IMG/VR virus record: IMGVR_UViG_2703718837_000001
Direction: 5' to 3' (one strand)
Source: a virus
Lineage: Duplodnaviria; Heunggongvirae; Uroviricota; Caudoviricetes
Length of the DNA: 49,704 bases
The position numbers and the translations under genes were made by a program. Shown one piece after another: positions 12,736 to 39,067 of this stretch; positions within the stretch are counted from its first letter, which is position 1; every line of letters begins with the position of its first letter. Under the pieces are notes generated by a model. It saw only the letters and a program-made list of their open reading frames with translations, did not search any database and was not told the origin of the DNA.

Positions 12736-13437
12736 ATGATTGAACAGCAAAAGCAATGGGTGTTTACTGAATTAGTAAAAGACCCCAATAACATCGAGCA
12801 ACTAATTTCATACACGATTTACAAAGGTTTCAAAAATGAAATAGCCGATAATGCTCGTAAGATGGGCAAGACTGAAGATGAGATCAATGAGGAGTTAGCA
12901 AAATATCACAACTATTGCATTAGTTCTCAAAAGCAATTAGATGTTTTTAGAGATAAAGCTAAAAACACTCTTGACGCTTATATTTTCACCGCTAACCATA
13001 ACATGATGAAACGGTTTAATGCGGAAATTATTAAAATAAAAAACAACTATGATAAAGAACTTGAACTAGCGCAAAAAAAGTTAAAAATTGCCGAAAAAAA
13101 AGCATTAAATAAGCTGTCCAAAGGTGCGGTTCTCTACAGCCAAAAAATTAAAGAGCCAGAGCATCTCTGGGATAAAATCCTTGATTTATTGTGGAGACTT
13201 ATGAAGTTTCTGTTCTCTGGCGTACCTAAACTTTTTGCTACTGCATTTTCTGTTGGTCTAATGTTCACAATTTATACAGCTTTCGACGAAGATGCCACGA
13301 CAGGTTTGAGAAAAGGGCTATATAAAATTGTTGATATGACTGTACCAGGAAAAGATATTCACGAAACCACAGATAATATAACCAATAGTGGCACAGAAAA
13401 AATGTCATCTTCAAATTCCCAAGCGCAGCAAGGATAG
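12736..13437 (+). CDS. Hypothetical protein with coiled coil and C-terminal transmembrane helix, AT-rich accessory gene
   Basis: 233 aa; hydrophobic segment LFATAFSVGLMFTIYTAF; Lys-rich helical N-terminal part; no good RBS. Confidence 0.5.
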   Translation: MIEQQKQWVFTELVKDPNNIEQLISYTIYKGFKNEIADNARKMGKTEDEINEELAKYHNYCISSQKQLDVFRDKAKNTLDAYIFTANHNMMKRFNAEIIKIKNNYDKELELAQKKLKIAEKKALNKLSKGAVLYSQKIKEPEHLWDKILDLLWRLMKFLFSGVPKLFATAFSVGLMFTIYTAFDEDATTGLRKGLYKIVDMTVPGKDIHETTDNITNSGTEKMSSSNSQAQQG

Positions 13438-13443
13438 GTGATG

Positions 13444-13872
13444 TTATAAGCCGCGCAGTGATTTCGGCGCGGCAAACGTCTCAATCATCTTTTCCGCGAT
13501 TGCCGACCAGGTGTGACACTGGACCTTTTCAGCATTTTTCACGCGATCAACGCGAGCAATAACCTCATCCCAATCAATCCGCGACTTGATAACCATATGG
13601 TTCACCAAATCCAGGCGATCCGGCGGAAGGCAATCGGGCGGCGTTAATATCAACGCTCCACACATTGCCGCCTCAAGAACAGTTAATCCAAGGCTTTCGG
13701 GATGCGTAACGATAAAAACGTCACTCTTACGCAATTCAGCTGCAAATTCGGTTGCTGGTACCGGCGTCCGTCTGTATGGGGTTACCGATATATTCCCCGG
13801 ATCAATGGTAATCAATCCGTCATCGGTCAACGTTCTGGCCTCATACGGAACGGTCAGACTCTGAAGGTTCAT
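13444..13872 (-). pseudogene. Glycosyltransferase C-terminal-domain fragment (GT-B fold), 5'-truncated
   Basis: 142-aa ORF with ...HPESLGLTVLEAAMCGALILTPP... typical of GT4 C-terminal domains; no N-terminal domain upstream (frame runs into a tRNA-like fragment and then the next gene). Confidence 0.45.
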
Positions 13873-13998
13873 AAGGATACTTAAGGAGTGATCAAAACCA
13901 CTAACATCAAATGCAGCGTGGTCTACAAAAATACGCAGAACATCGTCTGTTTTGGTTTCATCGACGCATGTGCCATACGCCGTACAACTACCAAATAA

Positions 13999-14030
13999 GG
14001 TGTCCCCTACCGGGCTTGAACCGGTGGCTG
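13999..14030 (-). other. tRNA 3'-end-like fragment (T-arm plus acceptor 3' strand)
   Basis: Minus strand reads ACCGG-TTCAAGC-CCGGT-AGGGGAC-A-CC: perfect 5-bp T-stem, canonical 7-nt T-loop, 7-nt acceptor strand; no matching 5' half upstream. Confidence 0.35.
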
Positions 14031-14168
14031 TGCGATTATGATCCCTTTGAAAAATAAATGCAGATCTAATAGGTTGTGTTATTTACTCATTGGCACAGAT
14101 TGCCATTACTTATCTAGTTTTAGCCATTTTTACCGCACTTCATCGCTACTAGCCTATGTTTCTTTATG

Positions 14169-15104
14169 TTAGAATGGTACATTGTCATCCATCTCAAAGT
14201 CTGGGGGTGCAACAGATATTCGATGAATTTCATTTCTTTCCATATCCATCATTTGATCCTCCTGCTCCCCATCATCGTACCACGATGAAGTGTCTACCTC
14301 TAAAGCTTCAGATATGACTTCAAATGTTTCAGGAGAGTCTAAGTGAGAAGCCATGTGCAACGTGAACGGATAACTTTCTTCTAGGCTAACCCCATCATTC
14401 CTAGAACCATATTCTTGAGTAACATAGACAGTACCGGAAGCATATATATTGATGTACTCATCATCAATCGACGTGATTCCAAATTCTTCGACTTCAGTGT
14501 AATCTACATACGCATGATTCGCGATAGTCACTAGGTTTTCAGGCATAGAGCTTACCGCCGTGTCAATAACTGCATTTCTAATTTTATCTTCGAGAGTACG
14601 AATTAATTCATCTCTACAAATATGTATACCATTTAGTATTTCTGTAGCGATCTGCAGTATTTGTTTGGCCTTCAGGAAGAACTCTTGAGGTGATGGATGC
14701 ATATATTTCTCTGTTATATGCGTATATTTATTTAAGAAGAAATAAAGCTTAAGCATCTCATCTATTCTTTCATTCGACTCCTCCAGGAACTCTTCCCCCA
14801 AGTACGCATCTGAAATTTTAGCTTGAGAACAGTATTTTAAACGCTGTCTTCTAGATATTTCGTAATGTTCATGTTCTCTCTTATACCACGATGCTTGTAA
14901 TAATTTATCATTCGGAGATTTTTTCTCGATAATATGCTTTATTAGCTCGCGAATTGAAAATGCAAAGTTATGAAAACGTAATGGGTTGCCATGTGATGCA
15001 TAATTTCGCAAACAAGCTGTGAATAATTCTTTTTCAAAATCAGCTTCGAGGTGACTCATAAAATCATTCACAAAATCAAGAGATTGTAGTTTTTTAAGCT
15101 TCAT
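14169..15104 (-). CDS. Hypothetical protein with SSB-like acidic C-terminal tip (…PPDFEMDDNVPF)
   Basis: 311 aa; AT-rich; helical N-terminal part with no OB-fold signature; last residues resemble the E. coli SSB tail PPMDFDDDIPF. Confidence 0.6.
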   Translation of the reverse strand: MKLKKLQSLDFVNDFMSHLEADFEKELFTACLRNYASHGNPLRFHNFAFSIRELIKHIIEKKSPNDKLLQASWYKREHEHYEISRRQRLKYCSQAKISDAYLGEEFLEESNERIDEMLKLYFFLNKYTHITEKYMHPSPQEFFLKAKQILQIATEILNGIHICRDELIRTLEDKIRNAVIDTAVSSMPENLVTIANHAYVDYTEVEEFGITSIDDEYINIYASGTVYVTQEYGSRNDGVSLEESYPFTLHMASHLDSPETFEVISEALEVDTSSWYDDGEQEDQMMDMERNEIHRISVAPPDFEMDDNVPF

Positions 15105-15914
15105 CGTGTAACCTTATATTCCTGTCTCAGATTTAATATCGGATTCAACCGAATCCTCTTCTTCTAAATTTTAAAGTCGTGTAACATTACAAAATATTCA
15201 AGGTTAAATTGAACATATATCATTGTTATTTAGATGTAAGTATATCTGAGCACTCGTTACAATACCAGAATATTACCATCATTCATCATAAAGTAACTAG
15301 CGAAGGTGTGGCGGAAACGTAAGTAAGTTGTTCTCCAGGTAATTCAATACCTGTTCTTTCTAAATAGCTGCGCGGAATAGTGATCTACTTTCGTCCGCCC
15401 TTGCAGGGCGAGACATTAGGTCGGCGTCCCCTACCTGACCGTGCTGCATCAGGCTTGAGTGTGTTGCCCATATGCAACATACCACACATCAGTAAACGGC
15501 AAGTGTAGTAGTATTAGGCGCAGAAATTTAGTACAGCCCAGAATGCGCCGTAACAATCAATAAACCACTACACCCGCGCCCTGGCTGCAATTCGGTAACA
15601 GGGGATCCCCCCTAGCTTCCAGCGTGATTAGCGCCTTCAGCATGACGGAATATACCCGTAAATACGAGGAACTCTACCCAAAGGCTGTTAAGAACCGGCT
15701 GTTACGCTGAATGAAAAAGGACGTAACAGGTAAGGACGCTGACCAGAAGATGGCCCCTTCTCGTTCATCTGGTTAATCAAACCAGCGCCCTTGCCTGTTA
15801 TGCCTCCTCGTTCCCTAATACACAGACGGGGACAACCCCGTGGTGTCAGGCTTCTTAGGCCGCAACCATCATCAGATCATCGTTTGCATTTACTTTAATG
15901 GTCAGTTTGTGACT

Positions 15915-17235
15915 GCTCCCCGCCCTGTCGGGCGAGGCTTCCCACTTCTCAGGCCACTACCGTCTGTGCGACGGATTTACGCTGGCCTCCATGGGCGGAG
16001 ACGACGAGTCCCGCCGCCTGTAGTTCCAGTATTCCTTTTTGCCGGATGTTGAGTGCCGCATTGATATCGCGGTCGTGCTCTGCTCCACATTCAGGGCATC
16101 GCCAGATGCGTTTATGAAGCGGCATTTCCGGCATTTTGTAACCACAACAATAGCAGGCTTTCGAACTGGCAAACCACTGGTCGAGTTTTACTAGGTGAAC
16201 GCCTTTTTCCGCTGCCTTGTACTCCAGCTTTGTGATGAAGCTATGCCAGCCTGCATCACCTATCGCTCTTGCCAGATTGTGGTTTTTCATCATGTTGGCT
16301 GTTTTCAGCGTCTCGACAATTACCGCTTGGTTTTCGTCAACAATTGCACGAGAGAGCTTGTGTTGAAAATCAGCACGGGCATTAGCCACCCGTTCGTGTA
16401 ACGCTGCCAGACGGATTGTGGCCTTTTTACGATTCGCGCTTCCCTTTTGCTTGCGGGATAAGGCTTTTTGTTTGCGTCGCAGATTACGGCTGGCATTGAT
16501 GAGATGGCGGGGATTTGCAATTTTTACCCCATCAGACTTGATGGCAAAGTGCGATAATCCCATATCTAGGCCAGTAACTGTTGATATCAACGTGGGTTTT
16601 GCCGGAGCTTCCATGCCATCATCACAGAGAATTGAAGCATAGTATTTCCCCGTTGCTGAACAGGTGATAGTGATGCTTTTCAGCTTTCCATGAAGTTCAC
16701 GGTGAAGGCGTGCTTCTATTAGGGACAGTTTTGGGATTTTGATGGCATTATCCAGCACCTTAATCCCGACACAGTGATAGCTCGATTGTTTTCCGTGTTT
16801 ACGTTTAAACGTCGGGAACCGCGCTTTCAGCTTCGGATTAAAAAAGTTGGAAAATGCCACATCAAGATTAATTACCGCCTGTTGCAACGCAATAGAATCA
16901 TATTCTTTAAGCCATCCATACCTGCGGGATTTCTTTGCCACTGCAAGCAGCGGTTTCAGATCGTTACGCGGACTTAAATTTACTCCATGTCGCTGGTAAG
17001 CATGTTTTTTGATGTGAAGAGCTTTGTTGTACGCAAAGCGCACTGCACCGAACTGGGCATTGAGGTACTCTGCCTGTTCTGGTGTCGGGTAAATGCGTAC
17101 TTTTGTTGCTCTTAACATAGTCACCGCTCATTGATACAGGCTTTTTATGCTAACACCGTAATGATTTTTTTAAAGCCCTGTTGGCTTTTCGCCTTATATA
17201 CCCGCCCGCATTAGGCGAGGGTTTACGGCGTTTTT
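15915..17235 (-). mobile_element. IS200/IS605-family element carrying tnpB only (boundaries approximate)
   Basis: Intact tnpB flanked by similar GC hairpins of the CCGCCC-loop-GGGCGAG type at 15925-15940 and 17196-17216; no tnpA. Confidence 0.55.
15949..17124 (-). CDS. tnpB: TnpB (OrfB) RuvC-like RNA-guided endonuclease homologue
   Basis: 391 aa; N-terminal MLRATKVRIYPTPEQAEYLNAQFGAVRFAYNKAL; RuvC-I D in TGLDMGL, RuvC-II E in IVETLK, zinc finger CYCCG...CPECG, RuvC-III D in HDRDINAALNI. Confidence 0.9.
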   Translation of the reverse strand: MTMLRATKVRIYPTPEQAEYLNAQFGAVRFAYNKALHIKKHAYQRHGVNLSPRNDLKPLLAVAKKSRRYGWLKEYDSIALQQAVINLDVAFSNFFNPKLKARFPTFKRKHGKQSSYHCVGIKVLDNAIKIPKLSLIEARLHRELHGKLKSITITCSATGKYYASILCDDGMEAPAKPTLISTVTGLDMGLSHFAIKSDGVKIANPRHLINASRNLRRKQKALSRKQKGSANRKKATIRLAALHERVANARADFQHKLSRAIVDENQAVIVETLKTANMMKNHNLARAIGDAGWHSFITKLEYKAAEKGVHLVKLDQWFASSKACYCCGYKMPEMPLHKRIWRCPECGAEHDRDINAALNIRQKGILELQAAGLVVSAHGGQRKSVAQTVVA

Positions 17236-17470: not shown

Positions 17471-17487
17471 ATTACACTAATAAATTT
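17471..17487 (+). promoter_or_regulatory. P1 C1-repressor operator-like site
   Basis: ATTACACTAATAAATTT (15/17 to consensus), between the IS left end and the 3' end of the methyltransferase gene. Confidence 0.4.
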
Positions 17488-17488
17488 A

Positions 17489-20400
17489 TTATAGCAATAT
17501 TGCTATAACGTCATGAGCAACACCACGAGTGTCTCCCTTACAAGACACAGAACGTCTGGCAAAAAGAGGTTCCACTCTGAAGCCACTGTCCTGATAAAGT
17601 TCTCTGATGTTTGGCGCGCCACTGTTAGTAATGAGAACCTTTGCACCTCGGCGATGAGCATCCGTCAACAGAGACACCAGGCGTTTTTGCTCTTCAAACT
17701 TAAAGTCATGACCGGAATAGTTCGTGAACCCCTCTGTATTGGGGAGCGGTTCATACGGCGGATCGCAAAAGATGACATCTCCTTCTCCGGCAGCTTCAAT
17801 CACCGCTGCAAAATCACCGCATACAAACTCAGACCGCCCTTCCGCACCGAGGAAGGCTTCCATCTCCTGTAATGGAAAATGCGTAGACTTATACTTCCCA
17901 TACCCGACATTGAACTCACCGGCCTGGTTGTAGCGCGTCAATCCATTAAAACAATGTCGGTTCAGGAACAAAAACGCCGCTGCGCGATGTAAATCATCAT
18001 AGACTTGTTTGTTAAACGCATTCCGTACTGCCAGGAATCCCTCCTGGGTGTTGTAGTCCAGGAAGAAACGATGTGCCAGAGTGATAAGTGAATGCGCCTC
18101 GCGTTGCAGAGTCTTGTAAAAGTTAATCAGGTCAGCATTCACATCATTTAGCAGATTTTCCTGATATCCGGCATTCATGAAGACAGCTCCGCCACCAACG
18201 AAAGGTTCAATCAGGCGCTTCCCTTCTGGCAAATAGCGAAAGATTTGTTCCAGAACACCAAATTTTCCACCAGCCCATTTGAATATGGGCCGTTCGAATT
18301 CTGCCGCTGGTTTAACCTTTCGCTCTTTTGTTTCACTCCCTTCTTTTTGCCGACATGCAGCCTTAGTAATCCGATCGCCAATCCAGCGCATTACTGGTAT
18401 TGCCATACTATTTCCGATCGCTTTGTAACGCGGTCCGTCAGCTGCAAGCATCGCGGCCTCTTCTTCGTTTAAATCAGGATAGTTATTGCGAAGGTATGCT
18501 AGTTCATCTGAAGAAACTTTTTTACGCTTTCCCGTAGGGATCAACGTATGCCAATCAGGAAAACCTTGCAGCCTTTCACATTCGACAGGGGTAAGACGGC
18601 GCATTCTATCGTCGCCGAGCAATACAATTGGTGCTTCATGGTTACATGTCAAAGTTGGTGCCGAATTATCGGTTTTTATCTCAGCCCCTCCTTGCCCATG
18701 TGCCATGGCAATTATGTTTGTATCATCGCAAGATCTGATAGCGATGTTTGAAGTATATCTGGTAGTTTCCTTCCCCTCGCCTCTGCTCGGCGCAATATCC
18801 CGGCGCTCGCCTTCGAACTCAAAAAGTACCGTTGCGGGATCGAGGTCTGTTCGAGCACTTGCGACAACAAACACGCGTCGGCGTCGTTGTGCCACTCCGA
18901 AGTATTGGGCATCAAGGATTCTCCAGGCCACCTTTCGCTGCGGTCCATAAATACAACCACACTGCGGCCACTTTGGAGCATGGCAACCGGTTTTGCCATC
19001 CCACCGCCAGAACGCGTTACTTTTTCCTGATTCAGGTCGATCACCTGGTTCAAATGGCGCATCTTCTCCAGCCAATCCGGCAAGGAAACATCCGAAGGCG
19101 TTATCTGCCGATGACAAGACCCCTGGGACATTTTCCCAGACGATAACGGCTGGTTTGAGAAATGACTCAGCCCGTTTGTCGTCAATTGCATTTGCAAGCT
19201 CCACATACTTTAAAGTTAGCGCGCCACGCTCATCATCAAGCCCACCACGTAATCCAGCGATACTGAATGCCTGACAGTTATGGACCACCGCACCATTGAG
19301 GATATAGGAATGATCACCTTCGACTTCTATGTTGTATACAGTATCTAGGCCTACCGATTTAAACTCTTTGACTGTTCGTAAAAGCATTCCATGAGCCAAT
19401 CTTGATTTACGTGACAATTTCTGCGGGCAGATTGTTACCTGATAATAATTCCGTTGATTTACCACGCGATCCTCAATCACTTTTTTGGGCTCAACTTCAA
19501 TAAAGCTGACCGAAGAAACATAACCACAAGTCTGTGACAACTCCGCAACGCCCCAAGCAAGCGCAGGACTAACACTATTAATTCTAAATCCCGCTTTACC
19601 ACTTGGTGTCCCATCAGTATCAAGATAGCCTTGTAAAAACACATGACGCAATGGATGCGACATCACCCATGCAGGGATACGCTTAGCATGGCTTAACTCG
19701 CCAAAATGTTCATTAAGCCAATTGGCATAACACGTATCATTCAAGGTTACTTTGATGCTCCCTCGGATTTCGCTTGCCACGGAAAATATGTTTTCTGGTA
19801 TGCGGCAATGAAACTTTCTCAATTTCTGGCAATTTATGCCAAAAACAACCGCCTTCTTAGATTTACCTCTCCATCTCCTAATATATCCATCGCCAACATA
19901 AGCGCCCGCAAGATACATAGCCTGTTCTTCAGACAAGAACCGAGAACAAATATCTGGAGATGCAATATTGAAATTAGTTAGAGCACACCATTGATATCCC
20001 GGCATATCACATGCTGCTCGCCATTCCGGTTCAGACAACAACTCTCTCTTAAAATATGTGCCATTTTTCCGGGTGTTTTGGGCTTTCCACCGAACCGCCA
20101 GGAAGGGATGGTCATTGGTTGTTCTTATACCTAAAGGCTGCCCAACGGCATTAAGTAACCCCGTATTAGCTATTTTTGAACCAACTCTTTTTACTTGTTG
20201 TAACCGCCCGAGATGACTGACTACGTAATCGCCAGGGCAAACATCTTCTATTGGTTTATAACCATTTTTACAAAGAACCATATGCCCCGCGGTAAAACAT
20301 GGTGTCCCTCCCACCAGCACATCAGGGGCTTCAATTTCTCCGGCCTGGACTTTTTGGGCGAGTTTTGTCATGTCGCCAAGGTTCGCGACATGGGGCCAGC

Positions 20401-32813: not shown

Positions 32814-33323
32814 ATGGGGCACAATAACACTAAGGGAAACCGTAAATTTATTAAGGGCCGCTATACTGCCAACGCGGCCAAAGGCGAACGACTGGTATCT
32901 TCTGAATTCCAGCTCACTTTTGCAGGCCATGAAGATATCAGCGTACTGGTTCGCACGTCGCAAATTCCTGAAATGACCCGCGAGGATGTGGAGGACTATG
33001 GTCCGAATGGTGTGAAGTTCAACCAGCACGGTCCAATCCGTAACTCCGGGGAAATCCAGGTCCAGTGCGTGGAGACTATCGAAGGTGATATTCTTCAGTT
33101 CATTAAAGATCGCATTGCGGCGAAGGACTATGTTGATATCACGATGGCTGCGACCCCTGAATCCAAATCTTCCGGGGTTAACGCCGTGACAAAAGCTGCT
33201 ACAACAATTGAAATGTTGGACTGCAAAATCTACAGTGATGCAATCGACTTTAGTACCGAAGATGTGACTGCCGCTGTGCGTCCGTCACTTCGTATCGTCT
33301 ACAACTGGATTGATTGGGATTAA
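32814..33323 (+). CDS. Hypothetical tail protein
   Basis: 169-aa ORF with RBS; followed by a terminator. Confidence 0.5.
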   Translation: MGHNNTKGNRKFIKGRYTANAAKGERLVSSEFQLTFAGHEDISVLVRTSQIPEMTREDVEDYGPNGVKFNQHGPIRNSGEIQVQCVETIEGDILQFIKDRIAAKDYVDITMAATPESKSSGVNAVTKAATTIEMLDCKIYSDAIDFSTEDVTAAVRPSLRIVYNWIDWD

Positions 33324-33342
33324 GAGTCATCCCTTGTATTTT

Positions 33343-33367
33343 AAAGCTCCTTCGGGAGCTTTTTTGT
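33343..33367 (+). terminator. Rho-independent terminator closing the sheath operon
   Basis: AAAGCTCC-TTCG-GGAGCTTT followed by T-run. Confidence 0.7.
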
Positions 33368-33406
33368 GCTTAAATCATGTCAATATAGCGAAATTTTGAG
33401 CATATT

Positions 33407-33703
33407 ATGGAAATTGATTTTTCATACTCTCCTGAAACGATAGAACGAAGATTCGAAATAATTGGATGCAAAACTATTTCCGAGGAGCATTATTGGATTC
33501 TCTATGATGCCAATACATGGTTATGTGCCTTAGCAGAATGTCAGCCATCGTTATGTGTAGGGGAGGGGGCTTTTCGACATAAGGTGCTGGCTACACTTGA
33601 AGTGAACACGTTACGATATTGGTGTGTAGAAATACTTAGTGATAACAAAGAATTGCACTTATTATTGCTGAATAAGTGTGCTTCTCTGCGCAGAAAAGCA
33701 TGA
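33407..33703 (+). CDS. Cys-rich small hypothetical protein (AT-rich island gene)
   Basis: 98 aa, six Cys; low GC; convergent with the two-gene minus-strand cassette. Confidence 0.45.
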   Translation: MEIDFSYSPETIERRFEIIGCKTISEEHYWILYDANTWLCALAECQPSLCVGEGAFRHKVLATLEVNTLRYWCVEILSDNKELHLLLLNKCASLRRKA

Positions 33704-33829
33704 GAAAACCCAACCGCTCTCCCGGAATTATCAGAAGAATATGTGCGGAAAGTTATAGCTAGCTATTGAAAAGCTAAAGTAGATCGGTTAGATTTGCATT
33801 ACTCATCTACCATGTGTAGAAAGAGCGAT

Positions 33830-33870
33830 CGAACCCGATACATAGCAATATGTGTCGGGTTCAGCTTTTT
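33830..33870 (+). terminator. Hairpin terminator between convergent island genes
   Basis: GAACCCGA...TCGGGTTC stem followed by AGCTTTTT. Confidence 0.5.
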
Positions 33871-34333
33871 ATGTCCCAAGTGCTCTTTTTCTGCTTTGTT
33901 TGAGTGTTCTGATTTTACTGTCATAGGTTACAACATAGGCTGTTTTGAGAAGCCAATAGTCTCTACGTGCGGATAGCACAACAACGTAGTTTTCACACTC
34001 ATTCCAGATTACCCACTCTTCAGTTGGTCCTCGTCTTTCAGACCAACATGATATATCGCAATGGTTATAATTCCTTATCATATGCGCGATCCAGCGAATT
34101 CGCTTGCACCGTTCAAGATCGGGTATACGTTCTTCTTCTTTTTTTCCCTCTGATACTAAATGCCAAAATCCGAACTCTTTCCCATCATATTCCGGTGAAT
34201 AACGTAATCGAACAGGGAGACCCTTAAACGTTATATTAGAGATTAAAATGTCTTCTCTGACAATATCATATACATCGTCTATATACTCTTGCCAACTTCC
34301 ATTGAAGTACAATAAATCTGGCATTTGAAGCAT
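33869..34333 (-). CDS. Hypothetical protein, downstream gene of AT-rich two-gene cassette
   Basis: ATG at 34333-34331 overlaps the upstream stop in a TGATG arrangement, GGGAGG 7 nt upstream; 154 aa; Cys/His-containing; no family recognised. Confidence 0.55.
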   Translation of the reverse strand: MLQMPDLLYFNGSWQEYIDDVYDIVREDILISNITFKGLPVRLRYSPEYDGKEFGFWHLVSEGKKEEERIPDLERCKRIRWIAHMIRNYNHCDISCWSERRGPTEEWVIWNECENYVVVLSARRDYWLLKTAYVVTYDSKIRTLKQSRKRALGT

Positions 34334-35037
34334 CAGCGAGCCTCCCACACGAAAATATTAAATTTACTTTCTGTTGGAAGAGTGCTTTTTAGTAACTCCC
34401 TGTTTGTATGTGATTTTATCCTGTTTATGACTTGGATTTTTCCCGCGTTGCTATTCATTCCTCGATGAACGTAGCCTAATGCACCAATGAAAAGATCCGT
34501 TAGCTGCAATTGTTGCACTTCATGAGATCGTATATGTTGAATTCTGTTTATCGACTCATGATTGTAATCATAGCGATCATTGTGAAGAACCCCTCTTAAT
34601 TTCTCAATTTTTTCAATACCTAAAGTATCTTTTATATCTAGGTAGATATTGTATGTGTTGTTACTTTCTATTATGTTTTTTAAGACATAAAAAAACATCT
34701 TATAATAGAAAGTATTATGATCTTGATGGAATCGAGCATGGTCCAGTTGCTCTTTATCAGGAACAACAACACCTCTAAAGCGCAATGCTGGGTTGCTGAA
34801 GAAGTAATCTACGACATCTAAGTAAAATTCAACTTTGGACGCAGATACTTTAGTCCACTTGATTTCGAAATCAGGTTTTAGATTGTGTTTTAATTTTAAT
34901 TCCTTGATGTCTCTAGCAATTTTTTTTGTGATAGTACCAGGACACCAAAGCGCACCCAATACCATGACTTTATTATGATCATTTAGTAGGTGACAGGATT
35001 CATCGCAGAATACATTAAATGTTCTTCGGTTCAACAT
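34333..35037 (-). CDS. Hypothetical protein with N-terminal FCDESCH motif, upstream gene of AT-rich two-gene cassette
   Basis: 234 aa; GGAG RBS; N-terminal NVFCDESCH resembles a DES-type acidic catalytic signature (reminiscent of DUF3800-like proteins, from memory). Confidence 0.55.
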   Translation of the reverse strand: MLNRRTFNVFCDESCHLLNDHNKVMVLGALWCPGTITKKIARDIKELKLKHNLKPDFEIKWTKVSASKVEFYLDVVDYFFSNPALRFRGVVVPDKEQLDHARFHQDHNTFYYKMFFYVLKNIIESNNTYNIYLDIKDTLGIEKIEKLRGVLHNDRYDYNHESINRIQHIRSHEVQQLQLTDLFIGALGYVHRGMNSNAGKIQVINRIKSHTNRELLKSTLPTESKFNIFVWEAR

Positions 35038-35184
35038 GTTAACTCCACTTATTGTTAGGTAGAATTGTCCGTTAGTTGTTTATTAATTGCAATAATGGGA
35101 CGTCCAGTTTTGGCAACTGTGTCCTCTTACCAAGACGCCTATGAGTTTGCCTCATGGCAAACTAGAAGTGTTGAAAGCATGCAT

Positions 35185-35201
35185 GGTTCTAATTAGAGCA
35201 A
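35185..35201 (-). promoter_or_regulatory. Weak C1-operator-like site upstream of the AT-rich cassette
   Basis: Reverse complement ATTGCTCTAATTAGAAC (first 11 positions match consensus, 12/17 overall). Confidence 0.3.
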
Positions 35202-35205
35202 TTCA

Positions 35206-36051
35206 TTAACCTCTGAATCCTGCCGGTATACCCCATTGTTCGTTATCTTTATTTTTGGCTAAAACCGCATTAAGAGCTTCGTTTACCGTCATGCAATGCG
35301 GCAGATTATCGAAGTTTGATACCCCGCCAATATCAGGAGAACGCTTGTTCTTCAGGTAAGCATATTTCCGCGCTGCCGCCTCTACTTTCTGCTTGAACTC
35401 ATGTTTTTGAGCGCGTTTTTTGGATAACCGCAGATTGTCAGCCTTTGCTTTTGCCTCAGCGATCCATGAAGTCAATTTTTTGAGTCTGGTCGTTCCGGCA
35501 CCGCCGGAAACTGATCTTTTTGTTTTTTTAACTTGTGACTTCTTATTCTTTATTGCCACGTCATCCTGACAGGGGGAGGGGGTATCATTTTGACATGGGG
35601 GTGTGGATAAAAAATTAAATAAAGCCAATGTCTTAGCGAGAACAGCTTTAACCTTGGTTGCCGCTGAAGAGATCTTTAATTTGCTTTCAATCAGCGCATT
35701 TTTGGCTTGTTGTGCGAAGGCCAAAAAGGATGGTGTAAACCGGTACAGGTTAGCGCGACGTTCACGGTGATCGCCGATAACAATCTCTACAGACAGGATT
35801 CCTTTGTTTACAGCTTCACGGAATGCACGAACGACGGTTGATTGGCTATAACCAGTTTCTGCCGCGATCAGGCGGTGAGGCTTGTGAATGAAGTATTCAC
35901 TGGTTGTTGCCGCGAGATTTGCACATTGCGACAGGATATGCCCGGCGCTACGGGATAGACCGGAGTGTGTTACAAAGCAGGCCAATTCATAGCCAGAAAA
36001 AGTAAAATCGCTCATCGTTATACAGCTCAGGAAAGTGACTTTAGCCAGCAT
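35206..36051 (-). CDS. repL: Lytic-replicon initiator-like HTH protein (RepL-like)
   Basis: 281 aa, immediately downstream of the KilA-N gene with an operator upstream, matching the P1 kilA-repL arrangement; HTH-like TGYSQSTVVRAFREAVNKGIL. Confidence 0.5.
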   Translation of the reverse strand: MLAKVTFLSCITMSDFTFSGYELACFVTHSGLSRSAGHILSQCANLAATTSEYFIHKPHRLIAAETGYSQSTVVRAFREAVNKGILSVEIVIGDHRERRANLYRFTPSFLAFAQQAKNALIESKLKISSAATKVKAVLAKTLALFNFLSTPPCQNDTPSPCQDDVAIKNKKSQVKKTKRSVSGGAGTTRLKKLTSWIAEAKAKADNLRLSKKRAQKHEFKQKVEAAARKYAYLKNKRSPDIGGVSNFDNLPHCMTVNEALNAVLAKNKDNEQWGIPAGFRG

Positions 36052-38753: not shown

Positions 38754-38809
38754 AGTTACGGCCTCACAATCAGGTTTAACAACCTGCTACCCGCTGCTAA
38801 ACAGGTGGC

Positions 38810-38900
38810 AGGACGTGACGGGGTTAGCAGACTGGCGATTGTGAAACCAGCAGGCCGAAGCCTCCCCATCACGCCCCACCATAATTTGGGCGTAACGCGG
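38810..38900 (-). ncRNA. Candidate c4-like antisense RNA of the immI region
   Basis: Segment contains TCACAATC, complementary to GATTGTGA next to the SD of the 73-codon ORF, and CTGCTAACC, complementary to two GTTTAGCAG copies at 38794-38806 and 38961-38973 on the same transcript. Confidence 0.35.
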
Positions 38901-39067
38901 TTTTACGGACACAAAAATACCGCAATATCGGATATCTGCGGCTGTCCGCACAATCATTCAGGCTGCTAAACCCGGTCGCAGAATTTGCTACGACGGCGAA
39001 ACTATAAGCCTGAACGATTAAAAGGTCAATATGATGCGAAAAGATAGCATTCGCGACTTAAAAATAC

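Follow-up and report, generated by a model that had tools for sequence, protein, structure and literature searches.

The rlfA-rlfB gene pair lies in a variable, low-GC cassette on a 49,704-nucleotide stretch of viral DNA (Caudoviricetes; IMG/VR record IMGVR_UViG_2703718837_000001), referred to below as the window. The translationally coupled pair is the functional core of the cassette and constitutes a horizontally mobile two-gene nuclease module, and its genomic signature, as far as gene content and surroundings can tell, is one of defence or abortive infection. The probable function of rlfAB, which is mobile cargo of phage P1, is that of a toxin-like or abortive-infection defence module. An earlier description made from the letters of the window (the sequence-only reading) had presented the region as a three-gene island and a candidate for an undescribed defence or abortive-infection cassette. 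The feature is real; it is, however, a known and named locus, consisting of the P1 genes rlfA, rlfB and pmgF, and the pair is already catalogued as a defence candidate in PADLOC.

The rlfA-rlfB-pmgF block has 98.7% nucleotide identity to phage P1 (AF234173, NC_005856) over all 1876 bp. Point differences alone separate the two, for example one base in the operator, and the gene order, the operator Orlf and the flanking genes bplB and repL are the same as in P1. The genes are annotated in both the P1 and the P7 records, the P7 names being rapA (rlfA), rapB (rlfB) and upf52.1 (pmgF). In the P1 record the rlf genes are labelled 'possibly lytic replication', and the label given to pmgF is 'putative morphogenetic'; these labels are guesses from position that have no experimental basis.

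The rlfA gene (34333 to 35037, minus strand) encodes a protein of 234 amino acids with the N-terminus MLNRRTFNVFCDESCH, and rlfB (33869 to 34333, minus strand) encodes 154 amino acids counted from the ATG. The stop codon of the former and the start codon of the latter overlap as TGATG at 34331-34335, the genes sharing 1 nt, and a ribosome-binding site, GGGAGG (34341 to 34346, minus strand), can be read in the sequence 7 nt ahead of the rlfB start, still within the 3' end of rlfA. Convergent to the pair is pmgF (33407 to 33703, plus strand), whose product of 98 amino acids contains six cysteines and is 100% identical to P1 PmgF. The cassette as a whole (33366 to 35191, 1826 bp), which is delimited on the basis of breakpoints, GC statistics, identity to P1 and plasmid counts, has a GC content of 0.375 compared to 0.465 for the entire window, and is thus among the lowest ca 1% of windows of equal size. 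Gene by gene, the values are 0.348 for rlfA, 0.482 for bplB and 0.455 for repL. The place, strands and lengths of the three open reading frames, the stop-start overlap, the ribosome-binding site and the GC content below that of the flanks had all been given in the sequence-only reading, and since they agree with the open reading frame list and the sequence, that description is accurate.

The definition of the module comes from its relatives. Scanning one genome per species, RlfA relatives were found at at least 581 loci, and the best 80 of these were analysed for gene order. In 79 of the 80 genomes, an rlfB relative is found directly downstream of rlfA on the same strand, overlapping or abutting it, and the sole exception is a locus cut by a contig end. 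These loci are spread over Proteobacteria, Bacteroidota, Nitrospirota, Chloroflexota, Cyanobacteria, Acidobacteriota and other phyla. The reverse search, anchored on RlfB in viral contigs, gave the same picture: rlfA precedes rlfB upstream in 31 of 31 cases, of which two are truncated by contig ends. From locus to locus, the sequence identities of RlfA and RlfB vary together (Spearman 0.39), and RlfA is better conserved than RlfB in all 75 of 75 loci (median 52% vs 37%). No rlfA-rlfB fusions or other domain architectures were found. An RlfA homologue with 43.7% identity is also present in the Bifidobacterium phage Bbif-1 (GQ141189.1, 34961-35653), where it is annotated as 'RlfA phagic protein'. 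Bbif-1 is an actinobacterial prophage-like element, and the module is therefore also carried by unrelated temperate phages.

The third gene behaves differently. None of the 80 rlfAB loci contains a PmgF homologue, and the relatives of PmgF are confined to phages of the P1/D6 type. Its N-terminal 65 amino acids are 43-45% identical to a protein of ca 200 amino acids that occupies the same position in SJ46 (210 amino acids) and RCS47, both of which are without rlfAB, and residues 2-75 have 42% identity to a D6 protein. PmgF has no Pfam, NCBIfam or PADLOC match. As a third component of the system pmgF is thus rejected, on account of both its absence from the pair loci and its homologues in SJ46, RCS47 and D6; it is a separate gene, tied to a position in the P1/D6 backbone and outside the rlfAB module. 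The view of the region as a three-gene island has to be abandoned accordingly.

The block is imported, swappable cargo, and not part of the replication or morphogenesis machinery of P1, as its low GC content and sharp junctions indicate. Comparison with six other P1-like phages by blastn places the breakpoints at 33365/33366 and 35191/35192: on the left, homology ends at 33365, just past the terminator of bplB, and on the right it resumes at 35192, within the operator. At this spot, RCS47 carries a ca 200-residue protein of no known function together with an IS605 transposase, SJ46 an Ail/Lom porin, and phi456 and MH445380 a filler of ca 0.7 kb; small open reading frames without known function are also among the alternative cargo in the P1-like phages that were checked. 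The block is retained in 99 of 633 query-matching plasmid records (ca 16%), and is absent from ca 84% of the P1-like plasmids. Among 5426 complete E. coli genomes it was found in 121, nearly all copies being on plasmids. The region is also on record as the low-GC 'variable region 5' of P1-like elements (PMC9603915), replacements of it have been reported (PMC6906374), and all three genes are non-essential in a CRISPR interference screen of P1 (PMC10695390). These results bear out the suggestion, made from the sequence, of mobile cargo in a variable spot of a phage-plasmid. Homology that made all three genes conserved structural or replication genes of the phage family would, according to the sequence-only reading, have refuted its proposal; this is not what is found, the labels being positional, the genes dispensable and their distribution in the family patchy.

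The larger of the two proteins of the module is a member of the Pfam family DUF3800 (PF12686), with 54.2 bits against a cut-off of 21 and an E value of 3.5e-14 over profile positions 1-148 of 149. Here, the statement that none of the proteins matched a nameable family does not hold, and both minus-strand proteins match PADLOC models as well (see below). In 24 homologues of 52-88% identity, the residues D12, E13, S14, C15, H16, D134, K136, D137, Q178 and D181 are invariant. The acidic motif FCDESCH noted earlier at the N-terminus is indeed there, and its D12-H16 stretch belongs to this invariant set. The family has been described as having an N-terminal DE and a C-terminal QxxD motif (PMC7736814), and RlfA has both, as D12-E13 and Q178-x-x-D181. 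The predicted fold is RNase HII-like over the full length of the protein, and the conserved acidic residues are D12, E13, D134, D137 and D181. There was no match to Pfam RNase_HII and no sequence match in the PDB. Compared to type 2 RNase H (RNase HII/H2A), the predicted fold is alike, the sequence identity is only 7-12%, and the S14-C15-H16 segment and many other family-specific invariants set RlfA apart from these enzymes. Judging from this conservation pattern, the invariant residues point to a substrate or a regulation different from that of type 2 RNase H.

RlfB belongs to a family that has no Pfam model. Neither it nor its listed homologues have a Pfam match, and no NCBIfam match or PDB sequence match (the latter at E<=10) was obtained for RlfB. 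Profile searches, one exhaustive over 1.84 billion representatives and a second word-indexed one, returned only unannotated proteins of ca 160 amino acids. The family comprises ca 1,770 clusters at 50% identity, practically all of them stand-alone proteins of this size. Within it, H58 and R75 are found in 99% of 225 sequences, and F56, R69, R78, W81 and W97 in 94-97%, which amounts to one invariant histidine and three near-invariant arginines. Sequence kinship to the RelE-type toxin families was considered and rejected: in addition to the missing Pfam and PDB matches, an hhalign comparison of the RlfB family with RelE, YoeB, YafQ and HigB gave a probability of 0.8%. A Foldseek search of RlfB against the PDB gave nothing significant. 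The predicted structure weakly suggests a distant fold resemblance to the RelE/colicin-D RNases, and the RNase-toxin fold should be taken as a lead, not as a result. RlfB can thus be called a putative RelE/colicin-D-like RNase or regulatory partner. Relative to the RNase toxins of the BECR fold (RelE, YoeB, HigB, colicin D, CdiA-CT), RlfB shows no sequence similarity, is ca 60 residues longer, and has its conserved His and Arg residues in the N-terminal helical half, unlike those toxins. For some RlfB relatives (P0002, P0007, P0008, P0012 and P0016), NCBI records give the name 'oxidoreductase', and phrog_16230 is called 'replication protein'; these names look like propagated mis-annotations, since the domain searches lend them no support.

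The evidence for a defence role lies in the company that the pair keeps. A PADLOC scan, which the sequence-only reading had proposed as a check, gave strong matches to PDC-M04A (1e-95, RlfA) and PDC-M04B (5.8e-53, RlfB), both models of the candidate system PDC-M04, with the two genes adjacent and co-oriented; no validated system was matched. The neighbour counts cover 72 loci, with the nearest gene considered on each side. Upstream, 16 (by Pfam) to 18 (by PADLOC) of the 72 have a type I specificity subunit in this place, and DNA methylases, one KwaB-like protein and one AIPR protein are found among the others. Downstream, it is a restriction enzyme in at least 13 of the 72 (8 type I, 3 type III and 2 type IIG), and GmrSD occurs there too. 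The closest relatives of the P1 copy adjoin integrases: one (88% identity) lies at an end of a prophage in Enterobacter ludwigii, and another (67%) belongs to an E. coli integrative element at guaA. Considering the PADLOC candidate, the restriction-modification operons and the integrase neighbours, the proposal of defence or abortive infection made for the whole cassette is reasonable for rlfAB; for pmgF it was wrong.

The location within restriction operons has a well-known counterpart. The anticodon nuclease PrrC, a single ABC-ATPase-nuclease protein, sits between hsdS and hsdR in the prr locus. Many relatives of rlfAB occupy the same slot as PrrC/RloC, in the order specificity gene, module, restriction gene: the specificity gene is the upstream neighbour in 18 of 72 loci, and the type I restriction gene the downstream neighbour in 8 of 72. 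In sequence and domains the two are unrelated, the slot being filled here by an RNase HII-like protein and a partner of 154 amino acids. By analogy, the hsdS-[rlfA-rlfB]-hsdR layout suggests an RNase that is held in reserve behind restriction.

Another point of comparison, and a further element of the defence context, is the recruitment of DUF3800 nucleases to type VII retrons and to Cas12a2/a3 and Cas13 loci (PMC7736814, PMC10910872, PMC12669027). With these nucleases, RlfA has in common the Pfam family, the DE and QxxD motifs and the predicted RNase H2-like fold. Unlike them, it is accompanied by no reverse transcriptase, non-coding RNA, CRISPR array or TPR domain, and has RlfB as its partner. 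The pair is not a type VII retron, as there is no reverse transcriptase open reading frame in or beside the cassette and no Rfam match in the region 33200-35400. The Rfam search over this region was negative for structured RNAs even at E<=10, and gave no DUF3800 RNA motif; elsewhere, DUF3800 genes pair with RNA motifs (PMC5737381). The rlfA leader (168 nt) folds only modestly better than shuffled sequences (z -2.3). With no Rfam match and this z value, a structured RNA partner for rlfA was rejected.

On this basis, we can outline how the module might operate. A P1 lysogen would carry rlfAB against other phages or mobile DNA, and RlfA and RlfB would be made together and form a complex. RlfA would then recognise or cut a nucleic-acid intermediate of infection, RNA:DNA hybrids for example, and this action would free or activate RlfB, which would cut tRNA or mRNA and so bring translation to a stop. 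The relatives within type I restriction operons could act as a back-up that fires once restriction has been defeated, as PrrC does. Either protein may be the sensor and the other the effector, the evidence pointing both ways: the rlfB disruptions and the Legionella gene described below favour RlfB as the costly or toxic partner, and RlfB, which evolves faster, could equally be the sensor. The most far-reaching version of this scheme, a new two-enzyme immune module in which an RNase HII-like protein, by sensing or cutting RNA:DNA hybrids or other replication intermediates of an invader, would license a partner RNase to arrest translation, and which many bacteria would have built into their type I restriction operons for the event that restriction is blocked, is put forward tentatively, as a possibility that we would rather bet against than for.

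A number of observations weigh against a defence function. The PDC entries of PADLOC are computational candidates only, and PDC-M04, strong as its two matches are, remains one. In the literature, no paper was found that names or tests PDC-M04, a study that tested PDC candidates having chosen others, and no experiment was found that shows protection or toxicity by rlfAB. The defences that a survey with DefenseFinder reports for P1-like elements include type III restriction-modification, dGTPase, PrrC and CapRel, and nothing that corresponds to rlfAB (10.1101/2025.09.12.675607). The alternative cargo proteins of RCS47, SJ46 and Ro157c2YLVW gave no PADLOC match, and the idea of a defence hotspot was therefore rejected; the spot is variable, though not demonstrably a defence hotspot. 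Furthermore, the P1 copy does not have the hsdS-hsdR location of PrrC. Instead, bplB/pmgF and repL are on either side of it; it follows directly downstream of repL, a C1 operator marks the junction, and kilA-repL is not closed off by a canonical terminator. An RNA sequencing preprint on P1vir groups rlfA and rlfB with the replication genes that are induced in lytic infection.

The last of these points can be read in favour of another role, namely that of a lytic-cycle accessory, in which the task of RlfA would be to process RNA:DNA hybrids or primers at the transcription-activated origin oriL inside repL, and that of RlfB, as an RNase similar to RegB of T4, host shutoff or mRNA processing. The same-strand arrangement behind kilA-repL with the C1 operator, the lytic induction of repL, rlfA and rlfB in the preprint, and the RNase H-type predicted fold of RlfA all speak for it, and together with the lack of an experiment in support of defence they are the reason that it keeps some weight. 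Nevertheless, we find it unlikely. The genes are non-essential for plaque formation (PMC10695390), and most P1-like plasmids are without the pair, as are viable P1-like phages in which repL is retained; all six of the six phages examined have repL and lack rlfAB, so that the pair cannot be counted as a member of the kilA-repL-oriL replicon. Across the phyla, moreover, it occurs with no repL nearby, typically in or next to restriction-modification genes, and the low GC and sharp junctions mark it as imported.

The transcription signals around the cassette are relevant in this context. An intrinsic terminator follows bplB (33343 to 33362, plus strand; terminator scan), with an 8-bp GC-rich stem and a T-run, and forms the left edge of the cassette. 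Between the convergent pmgF and rlfB genes, 7 nt past the rlfB stop, the same scan finds a 14-bp palindromic hairpin (33831 to 33862, no strand assigned) that is probably a two-way terminator. At the right end, downstream of repL, sequence and RNA folding give only a hairpin of 8 bp with no T-run (35144 to 35163, minus strand), which is not a canonical terminator. The cassette had been described as bracketed by terminators, and this is thus correct on the left and between the genes, and not on the right. The predicted sigma-70 promoter PrlfA (35064 to 35092, minus strand; TTGCAA, a 17-nt spacer, GACAAT) was transferred from the P1 record, the sequence being identical. With a fit to 8 of 12 consensus positions, it falls short of the 9 of 12 that the promoter scan requires, and is for this reason regarded as weak and as predicted only.

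The C1 operator Orlf, formerly Op55, with the sequence ATTGCTCTAATTAGAAC (35186 to 35202, minus strand), was located by P1 annotation and alignment, and contains the right junction of the cassette. It fits 12 of the 17 consensus positions, is placed by the P1 record just past the stop codon of repL, and lies upstream of PrlfA, 94 bp from its -35 hexamer. Its 11-nt core next to the repL stop, ATTGCTCTAAT, is backbone sequence in five of six P1-like phages that lack the cassette, SJ46 being the one that differs. The partial C1-operator-like site that the sequence-only reading assigned to the promoter region is hence present, while its assignment to the promoter does not stand, given the distance and the backbone origin of the core. 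The junction falls within Orlf also in the loci L082, L084 and L122-L124, where the core ATTGCTCTAAT is kept with different cargo and the 6 distal nucleotides vary. Read-through that leaves repL and enters the cargo, whichever it is, may be regulated by the half-operator.

A different alternative would be a plasmid-addiction toxin-antitoxin system, with RlfB as a stable RNase toxin and RlfA as its neutraliser, such that cells that become free of P1 are killed, as with phd-doc of P1. The order of the genes, neutraliser first and small toxin second, and their translational coupling fit this well, and so do several disruptions. In an E. coli contig (L121, DAFUPF010000011.1, 8699-9180), a 7-bp duplication of AAGAAAA causes a frameshift that breaks rlfB while rlfA is intact. 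Two P1-like contigs (L101 and L102) lose rlfB after ca codon 74 by rearrangement, again with rlfA intact, and rlfB is possibly broken in three metagenome-assembled genomes (L020, L061 and L070). No genuine case of a broken rlfA with an intact rlfB was found. In addition, a strain-specific DUF3800 gene, of unverified subfamily, was scored as essential in Legionella transposon sequencing alongside antitoxins (10.1101/2020.10.01.323287). However, the disruptions are few, and the rlfA-anchored sets are biased towards intact rlfA; in the unbiased set, the count is 2 vs 0. RlfA is, furthermore, an enzyme-like protein of 234 amino acids with a full-length RNase H fold prediction, invariant residues of catalytic type and no DNA-binding antitoxin domain, and its consistently higher conservation compared to RlfB is the reverse of what is expected for typical type II pairs. 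Most relatives are also chromosomal and inside restriction operons, where addiction makes less sense. We therefore regard the toxin-antitoxin explanation as improbable.

One apparent counterexample among the disruptions, a broken rlfA in phage vB_EcoM-813R1 (L125, ON470617.2), was discarded. It results from five 1-nt homopolymer losses, three of which also break repL, and was for that reason attributed to sequencing error. Such 1-nt homopolymer deletions fragment repL and rlfA in the deposited genomes of both 813R1 (L125) and 673R5 (L124); they are probably long-read errors, which makes these gene calls unfit as evidence for pseudogenes.

We also considered counter-defence, in which the nucleases would destroy a component of host immunity, such as retron msDNA or a signalling RNA, and thereby aid the establishment of P1, in the manner of the Dar proteins. 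P1-like elements are rich in anti-defence genes (10.1101/2025.09.12.675607), and the RNA:DNA hybrid within retron msDNA is a conceivable target for an enzyme of the RNase H type. The location of the relatives in bacterial restriction operons and beside integrases is, on the other hand, typical of defence and not of anti-defence, and the models that the pair matches in PADLOC are those of a defence candidate. This scenario is accordingly very improbable, and the mobile defence module remains the reading that we prefer.

A few other features of the window were noted. A 311-residue open reading frame (14169-15104, minus strand) contains the domains pP_pnuc_1 and pP_pnuc_2 ('pPIWI-associating nuclease') and matches PADLOC Aga_Nuclease at 2e-62. 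It is neighboured by a fragment of a glycosyltransferase gene (13444-13872) and an IS605 TnpB (15949-17124), and no open reading frame of the size of Argonaute adjoins it; this may be a further variable spot, with an Argonaute-associated nuclease that has become an orphan. The surrounding region, ca 11900-16000, has a low GC content (0.39), is covered to only ca 20% by any phage record, and is specific to this element. At the left end, positions 1-2154 have a GC content of ca 0.35 and no megablast match among 50,697 phage records, and contain a 186-residue open reading frame of the Phage_integrase family (880-1440, plus strand); from 2155 on, the sequence is P7-like. Above the gathering scores, Rfam finds the C4 antisense RNA of P1 immunity and its a1/b1 target element, at 38801-38886 and 38955-39007 (both minus strand), which confirms the immI region of P1 just beyond kilA and ant. 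Finally, the C1 operator consensus has eight matches with at most three mismatches (3757, 3806, 7430, 17471, 17482, 21781, 36952 and 39068), compared to 0.39 expected, and the matches at 17471-17498 overlap on opposite strands.

P1 is heavily used in genetics, yet the function label of two of its genes is unsupported by the present evidence. If rlfAB works as a defence system or toxin, it would be a widespread addition to the immune repertoire, with at least 581 loci and ca 1,770 RlfB clusters. It would also provide a tractable model for the DUF3800 nucleases found near retrons and CRISPR loci, and, after PrrC, a second example of a reserve RNase inside restriction operons. Should the two-enzyme immune scheme prove true, a defence system labelled 'replication' would have gone unrecognised in P1 ever since the phage was first annotated.

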